Origin: Escherichia coli
GTDB taxonomy: Bacteria; Pseudomonadota; Gammaproteobacteria; Enterobacterales; Enterobacteriaceae
Assembly (NCBI RefSeq): GCF_003334255.1
Contig: NZ_QOWU01000221.1
Length of the DNA stretch: 583 nucleotides
Direction: 5' to 3' (one strand)
Under the pieces are notes generated by a model that was given only the letters and a program-made list of their open reading frames with translations, was not told the DNA's origin and ran no database searches. Below, piece after piece: positions 78 to 506 of the stretch; within the stretch, counting starts at the first letter, position 1; each line of letters starts with the position of its first letter. A program made the translations under genes and the position numbers.

Positions 78-78
78 T

Positions 79-504
79 ATAGGTCACATCACCGCACCAC
101 ACCTGATTTGGTTCCGTTACGGCGAACTGTCGCTCAAGATGATTCGGGATAGCAACGTGCTCATGACCGCCACGCTTATACCGGTGAGTCGGCTGCTGGC
201 AACTGACCAGCCCCAGCTCTTTCATGAGTCTGCCAGCAAGCCAGTGCCCCATCTGGTAGCCTCTCCGGGTTGCCATTGTGGCGATGCTTCTTGCTCCGGC
301 AGAGCCGTGGCTGATGCCATGCAGTTCAAGTACCTGGCTGCGTAATACAGCCCGTCTGCCGTCTGGTTTTTCAGGACGGTTTTTCCAGTATCTGTAGCTG
401 CTGCGATGAACCCCGAACACATGGCAGAGTGTGACCACAGGATAATGCGCTCTGAGTTTCCTGATTATCGAGAACTGTTCAGGGAGTCTGACATCAAGAG
501 CGCG
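79..504 (-). pseudogene. insO: IS3-family (IS911-like) transposase OrfB, N-terminal fragment of about 142 codons, truncated after ...VWCGDVTY by the intron-like insertion and cut off from its orfA/frameshift site by IS30
   Basis: Most of this lies within six-frame ORF 13..438 (minus), whose GTG 'start' at 438-436 is internal; the same frame stays open upstream to about 504 (…[23 protein letters not shown]…). Native OrfB is made as an OrfAB fusion by -1 frameshifting, so no independent start is expected. The last IS-derived codon is TAT (79-81); the DDE catalytic core downstream of the first Asp is absent. Symbol insO is by analogy to E. coli K-12 IS911 orfB, from memory. Confidence 0.8.
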
Positions 505-506
505 GT
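465..506 (-). pseudogene. insN: IS911-like OrfA (transposition regulator) C-terminal fragment: 13 codons plus stop ([13 protein letters not shown])
   Basis: Minus-strand frame one nucleotide offset from orfB reads ACC GCG CTC TTG ATG TCA GAC TCC CTG AAC AGT TCT CGA TAA, with the stop at 465-467. The remainder of orfA and the slippery site lie upstream of this point and are displaced by the IS30 insertion. Symbol by analogy to E. coli K-12 IS911 orfA, from memory. Confidence 0.6.

Follow-up and report, generated by a model that had tools for sequence, protein, structure and literature searches.

An internal IS911 fragment between IS30 and the group II intron E.c.I4, very probably from the fec island of Escherichia coli

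The 583-nt stretch of E. coli DNA analyzed here, referred to as the window, is very probably the central part of a non-functional, triple-nested copy of IS911 that resides in the fec (ferric citrate) island at tRNA-leuX, the island known in K-12 as KpLE2. Read on the plus strand, the window is made up of three abutting pieces. Positions 1 to 77 (minus strand) are the first 77 nt of the group II intron E.c.I4 in antisense, correspond to the non-coding start of domain I, and show 0/77 mismatches to the K-12 sequence directly after IS911A-1. Positions 78 to 506 (minus strand) are a 429-nt internal fragment of IS911 that spans approximately nt 334 to 762 of the element, and positions 507 to 583 (plus strand) are the left end of IS30 (nt 1 to 77), identical at 77/77 positions to the K-12 copies IS30A and IS30D. 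The insertion (homing) site of E.c.I4 in IS911 orfB falls between positions 77 and 78 (minus strand), where the 5′ exon ...GTGACCTATA gives way to the intron GTGTGCCC..., and one copy of the 2-bp IS30 target-site duplication occupies positions 505 to 506 (minus strand; AC in the IS911 sense, GT on the plus strand). A nest of these three mobile elements is common and is already known and annotated in E. coli; the earlier note was right to see in it familiar mobile-DNA nesting and not a novel system, as it is annotated in RefSeq and described in PMC3522654 and PMC9333248.

The IS911 piece encodes the last part of orfA plus the N-terminal third of OrfB, and both ends of the element are separated from it. 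It aligns to K-12 IS911A-1 (NC_000913.3 271762-272190, also 429 nt) without gaps and from end to end, with 418/429 identical residues (11 mismatches), and with IS30 nt 1 at position 507 the limits of 78 and 506 that the earlier note had assigned to the locus are exact to the base. The translated sequence (79 to 504, minus strand) matches the NCBIfam model NF033516, “IS3 family transposase,” at profile positions 88 to 225 of 369 (E = 7e-35), and as a fragment of the transposase it scores 120.9, less than the full-length cut-off of 160 bits; PGAP calls the same piece in strain A27 a partial IS3-family transposase pseudogene. A complete IS911 is found neither in the window, which holds an internal piece, nor in A27, where IS30 and the intron split the element into three parts of 335, 429, and ≈486 nt. 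The sole long ORF of the window, a mechanical 141-aa reading frame at 13 to 438 (minus strand), is no gene; it is the OrfB frame read past the exon–intron boundary to the first stop, with its last 21 codons (window 77 to 16) and the stop codon (15 to 13) consisting of intron sequence. An Rfam scan of the window returned zero family matches, even at E ≤ 1, and the extreme 5′ end of the intron brought no Rfam model to threshold. The intron-free K-12 copy IS911B-1 aligns to window 78 to 386, and the likeness stops exactly at 77/78, beyond which the K-12 element runs on uninterrupted. The 429-nt piece is inert and does nothing itself, because the promoter-proximal part, the frameshift signal, the catalytic DDE core region, and the IS ends are all absent from it.

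On the other side of the piece, IS30 begins with its nt 1 at window 507, and K-12 IS30A (locus L002, 8542-8618) and IS30D match from their annotated first base. The left terminal inverted repeat (IRL) occupies 507 to 532 (plus strand) and also matches the right end of IS30 at 23/26 positions; the transposase start codon ATG lies at 569 (plus strand; ATGAGACGAACATTT, encoding MRRTF...), in keeping with K-12 insI1, which begins 62 nt into IS30A. The window holds just 77 nt of IS30, the transposase gene of which is intact (1152-nt CDS) in NCTC10973, Z1323CEC0003, and RL465 and interrupted by IS66 in A27. In the IS911 sense, the A27 sequence reads ...AAAAAAGGCTAC, then IS30, then ACCGCGCTC..., with AC on both sides, and direct reading of the junctions shows A27 and CP4-6 to be alike in this sense (...ATATTAAAAAAGGCTAC, then IS30, then ACCGCGCTCTTG...). 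The IS30 target in A27 and CP4-6 is situated 5 nt downstream of an AAAAAAG (A6G) heptamer in the IS911 5′ part, outside the window. This heptamer is the −1 frameshift (slippery) site of IS911 between orfA and orfB. A 2-bp duplication is a signature of IS30, which prefers nearly palindromic hot spots, and the K-12 structure IS911′-IS30A-IS911′′ has been mapped (PMC9333248). In A27, the IS30 beside the window is itself broken by an IS66-family element with tnpA, tnpB, and a frameshifted tnpC (locus L001, 9265-11700), which, counting this IS66 inside IS30, makes four nested mobile elements in ≈7 kb. In the K-12 KpLE2 copy, the IS911B 5′ part (locus L003, 11440-11459) has A5 rather than A6 in the frameshift heptamer (TTAAAAAGGCTAC) and is for this reason annotated as 334 nt, not 335.

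The intron RNA is encoded on the minus strand and starts with GUGUGCCCGG at window 77, such that GUGUG corresponds to window 77 to 73. In A27, the intron is 2270 nt long (L001 5808-8077) and has the ends GUGUG...AC (3′ ...CUAC), in agreement with the 5′ GUGYG and 3′ AY of group II introns; its 3′ end harbors domain V/VI (Rfam RF00029; 64.9 bits against a gathering score of 40; L001 5808-5894). The overlap between the A27 and K-12 CP4-6 introns is exactly 1764 nt with five mismatches (1759/1764), and the published E.c.I4-tr1 is listed in the supplement of PMC3522654 as a “Fragment of 1764 bp” in prophage CP4-6 of MG1655; the intron of the window is therefore E.c.I4. According to PMC3522654, E.c.I4 homes into fixed positions of the transposase genes of IS629, IS911, ISEc16, and ISEc31, and MG1655 carries one E.c.I4 fragment (1764 bp, CP4-6) and one free homing site. 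This free site is IS911B-1, in which GTGACCTATA continues uninterrupted into TCTGGACGGG. The A27 ltrA gene, which lies outside the window, is intact and encodes 502 aa (TIGR04416, group II intron reverse transcriptase (RT)/maturase; 341 bits versus a cut-off of 300), whereas K-12 YkfC corresponds to LtrA residues 1 to 364 (361/364 identical) and is cut by IS5A. The earlier note, which described an IS911 split by IS30 and followed by an RT pseudogene, thus named the element types correctly (an IS911 fragment, IS30, and an adjacent RT-encoding retroelement) but not the state of the RT, as the matching genomes carry an intact 502-aa LtrA; furthermore, ltrA starts ≈670 nt beyond the window, the 77 intron nt of which are non-coding and contain no RT coding sequence. 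A search for EBS–IBS pairing of domain I with the 5′ exon found no exact Watson–Crick complement; with G–U pairs allowed, intron nt 263 to 271 can pair with exon −9 to −1 and nt 275 to 282 with exon −16 to −9, but these candidates are rich in wobble pairs and atypically spaced. The K-12 small RNA EyeA (L002 10581-10655; NC_000913.3 272580-272654) maps inside the truncated E.c.I4, at approximately intron nt 390 to 464 and upstream of ykfC; it is thus not a gene locus in its own right but part of the domain I RNA of a group II intron.

The genomic distribution of the window was determined across 5426 complete E. coli genomes and, separately, across plasmids. All 583 nt are present at 100% identity in ≈10 complete E. 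coli chromosomes, near-identical Escherichia matches of the kind that the earlier note called for, and some part of the window is present in 4698 of the 5426 genomes, so the match is not due to chance. We inspected the context in three of the ≈10 perfect-match genomes, A27, NCTC10973, and Z1323CEC0003. In all three, the order is fecABCDE, a small ORF, the IS911 3′ part, E.c.I4 with an intact ltrA, the 429-nt piece, IS30, and the IS911 5′ part, followed by a hypothetical gene and then an AbiJ-NTD4 gene; in Z1323CEC0003, tRNA-Leu and ahr come after the AbiJ-like gene. This places the window between fecE and tRNA-leuX/ahr in each of the sampled genomes, and the A27 flanks are 98.9 to 99.6% identical to K-12 KpLE2. 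The window-type junction (IS911/IS30-IRL; 144-nt query, ≥80% covered) is found in 997/5426 genomes and the CP4-6-type junction (IS911/IS30-IRR; ≥80% covered) in 874/5426, while both window junctions together, interrogated with a split query (intron/IS911 plus IS911/IS30-IRL), occur in 207/5426. On this split query, K-12-type genomes reach 72% coverage and intron-less genomes such as ATCC 8739 reach 74%, as predicted. The IS911/IS30-IRL junction also occurs elsewhere, in a tRNA-Phe island and at a cob-adjacent site that is broken by further IS3-family elements; these copies have no annotated intron and match the junction query at 96.5 to 98.6%. Among plasmids, 396 records cover at least 80% of the window, and the whole arrangement is found on plasmids of Enterobacter roggenkampii (H156, H157), E. 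coli, and Shigella flexneri (H160) at 95.7 to 98.1% identity. The triple nest thus moves as one block, also outside the chromosome of E. coli. Just past the IS911 5′ end, the fec island harbors a conserved pair of genes (L001 12535-13980; L006 8091-9536) encoding a 190-aa hypothetical protein and the AbiJ-NTD4 protein, possibly an abortive-infection or other defense module; this pair is unlisted at the corresponding position in the K-12 KpLE2 annotation.

The earlier note had placed the window at the K-12 CP4-6 locus, and a derivation from a K-12-type insN - insI1 - insN′ - ykfC arrangement would account for much of what is seen, namely, a 429-nt IS911 piece that is delimited identically at both ends and borders on the same intron 5′ end (window 1 to 506, 11 mismatches), together with an IS911/IS30-IRR junction that is itself frequent (874/5426 genomes). 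We nonetheless regard this origin as highly improbable. In CP4-6, the 429-nt piece joins the right end of IS30, and window 533 to 583, which comprises the interior of the IS30 left end and the insI start, is without counterpart at that K-12 position. K-12 CP4-6 covers window 1 to 532 only, at 97.4% identity, and the last 26 bases of this match (507 to 532) align only because the two terminal repeats of IS30 resemble each other. K-12-type genomes stop at 72% of the split two-junction query, and the perfect matches sit in the fec/leuX island, the three sampled genomes of 100% identity all showing this context and an intact ltrA. The orientations, which had been said to fit the CP4-6 pattern, do not: IRL adjoins the piece in the window and IS30 runs opposite to IS911, while in CP4-6 it is IRR that adjoins and both elements point in the same direction. 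K-12 itself, as the CP4-6 source, is refuted by the sequence of the IS911/IS30 junction. The order insN - insI1 - insO that the earlier note gives for CP4-6 is at odds with the current K-12 annotation, in which insN denotes the two IS911 fragments of CP4-6 and insO denotes the copy in KpLE2.

Judging from complete E. coli genomes and plasmids, a source of the same nest on a plasmid or in a non-E. coli enterobacterium, in place of the E. coli fec island, is very unlikely, although a chromosome of Shigella or another enterobacterium could carry the identical sequence. The 396 plasmid records with ≥80% coverage, the full arrangement on E. roggenkampii, E. coli, and S. flexneri plasmids, and the IS911/IS30-IRL junction in the tRNA-Phe-island and cob-adjacent contexts all speak for a wider distribution; however, the best plasmid reaches 98.1% versus the 100% of the chromosomal fec-island copies, and the two other sampled chromosomal contexts are without an annotated intron and match at 96.5 to 98.6%. 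We consider it extremely unlikely that the IS911 fragment has been co-opted, as the source of a regulatory RNA or of a truncated OrfB peptide, and is anything other than inert debris. The annotation of the small RNA gene eyeA within the neighboring intron remnant of K-12 and the persistence of the arrangement in hundreds of genomes could be read in favor of such a role. Against it, Rfam gives no match at E ≤ 1, the long ORF is the OrfB frame running into the intron, and the 2.6 to 7.8% divergence between copies, together with frequent insertions of IS66, ISKpn26, and other IS3 elements, looks like neutral decay; retention of the arrangement is explained by its linkage to the fec island. A middle piece of a non-functional, triply nested IS911 in the fec island remains the preferred reading of the window.

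The fec-island IS911 is found in several states of occupancy that bear on how this nest was built. It carries IS30 only in RL465, the exons of which are identical to those of A27 (335/335, 429/429, and 478/478), the intron only in O104:H4 strain RM8376, and both IS30 and the intron in A27, NCTC10973, and others. Since RL465 lacks the intron and has identical exons, the intron either entered, or precisely left, an existing IS911::IS30 copy. From these occupancy states we infer that IS30 inserted before the intron, which is the simplest history; the same states would also arise if a copy with both insertions had precisely lost the intron. In the history that we propose, IS911 would have entered the fec island, after which IS30 would have inserted into it 5 nt after the A6G heptamer, antiparallel and with an AC duplication, parting orfA and the slippery site from orfB. 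E.c.I4 would then have retrohomed in the sense orientation into its usual IS3-family transposase site in orfB, 427 nt downstream of IS30, and in A27 an IS66 element would finally have inserted into IS30, taking the nesting to four levels. Several genomes have an intact IS30 and an intact ltrA, so the flanking IS30 and E.c.I4 may still be active and able to move.

Co-conversion of the 5′ exon during retrohoming was considered and is ruled out by RL465, which has no intron yet has exons 100% identical on both sides of the site. The apparent signal of co-conversion consists of the 167 nt next to the intron (window 78 to 244), which are identical to CP4-6, whereas window 78 to 247 shows 19 mismatches to the intron-less K-12 KpLE2 copy and the 3′ exon is ≈99.8% identical to that copy. 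As the RL465 exons are identical without an intron, K-12 IS911B-1 is the odd one out. Relative to the fec-island IS911 (L001/L008), K-12 IS911B-1 (L003 13008-13802), which lies beside an IS600 fragment, is a mosaic, with an identity of 92.2% for the 309 nt that precede the intron site and of 99.8% for the 478 nt that follow it; its PGAP label is “ISEc52 family.”

IS30 occupies the identical IS911 nucleotide in both orientations (window 505 to 507 versus CP4-6, L002 8541/8542 and 9762/9763). Furthermore, the IS600 of strain Res13-Lact-PER02-33 (L010, NZ_CP062838.1 2507-3727) carries a 1221-bp IS30, reading ATATTAAAAAAAGCAAC, then IS30, then ACAGCGTATTTTG; this site is homologous to the IS911 position past the slippery site and again shows the AC duplication (ATATTAAAAAAAGCAAC, IS30, ACAGCG). 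In K-12 KpLE2 (L003 12680/12681), the IS600 fragment is joined, at this very IS600 nucleotide, to the opposite end of IS30, so that IS30D lies between the 5′ part of an IS911 and the 5′ part of an IS600; this copy looks like the recombination product of two IS30 elements, each within an IS3-family element. On the basis of an IS911 site occupied in two orientations (997 and 874 genomes) and of the homologous IS600 site, always with an AC duplication, we tentatively suggest that IS3-family elements may possess, 5 nt past their −1 frameshift heptamer, a natural hot spot for IS30 that is hit repeatedly and in both orientations. The two orientations themselves most likely reflect repeated insertion at such a spot in either direction; the alternative is a single old insertion that was spread by IS30–IS30 recombination or was flipped in place. 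The targets in IS911 and IS600 show only weak dyad symmetry, at 6/18 and 7/18, respectively. If the hot spot is real, one IS would systematically inactivate elements of a different family at the very point that decides OrfAB synthesis.

The biological weight of this nest is small; it documents IS elements and group II introns landing inside one another in genomic islands. Its practical value is one of annotation, in that the 429-nt piece is to be read as an IS911 pseudogene fragment, and K-12 ykfC and eyeA as parts of an E.c.I4 intron that has been truncated. PGAP places, in each of the genomes inspected, an 81-nt partial “hypothetical protein” pseudogene at window 492 to 572 (plus strand; L001 8492-8572), which spans the IS911/IS30 junction and ends just within the start of the IS30 transposase gene. 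This 81-nt feature is no gene and looks like an annotation artifact carried along with the IS30 left end. Nests of the CP4-6 type and the fec-island type are easily confused in similarity searches because 91% of the window is common to both at 97% identity, and they are told apart only by the IS30 orientation and the flanks.

When compared to the two nests of K-12, the window shares different features with each. The CP4-6 nest has the order IS911A - IS30A - IS911A-1 - E.c.I4 remnant (eyeA, ykfC) - IS5A and is composed of the same three elements, with IS30 at the same nucleotide and with the same AC duplication and the intron at the same site; because the two insertion sites coincide, the same 429-nt IS911 piece results. 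This piece is 97.4% identical between the two, and the introns are 99.7% identical over the shared 1764 nt. Unlike in the window, where IRL adjoins the piece and IS30 is antiparallel, IS30 in CP4-6 is parallel to IS911 and IRR adjoins the 429-nt piece; its intron, unlike that of the window genomes, is truncated by IS5, with the RT ending after 364 of its 502 residues, and CP4-6 lacks the IS911 3′ part. The context differs as well, CP4-6 being a thrW prophage with perR and mmuP, while the window genomes carry the nest in the leuX island with fec. The KpLE2 nest has the order IS911B - IS30D - IS600 fragment - IS911B-1 - yjhV - fecE and, like that of the window genomes, resides in the orthologous position (leuX, fec operon), with IS30 antiparallel to IS911 and IRR adjoining the IS911 5′ part. 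Unlike the window, it has no intron and thus an unoccupied homing site; the first 120 nt of the middle piece are replaced by a 327-bp IS600 fragment, and the rest of the middle part is 92.2% identical to the window.

Finally, the arrangement in the window genomes closely resembles the tandems of E.c.I4 and IS3-family elements described by Leclercq and Cordaux (2012; PMC3522654). Both feature a sense insertion at a fixed position of the IS911 transposase gene, a full-length 2.27-kb intron copy with an intact RT/maturase, and a location in a genomic island. No difference of substance separates the present nest from these described tandems, other than the additional IS30 harbored here by the same host IS.
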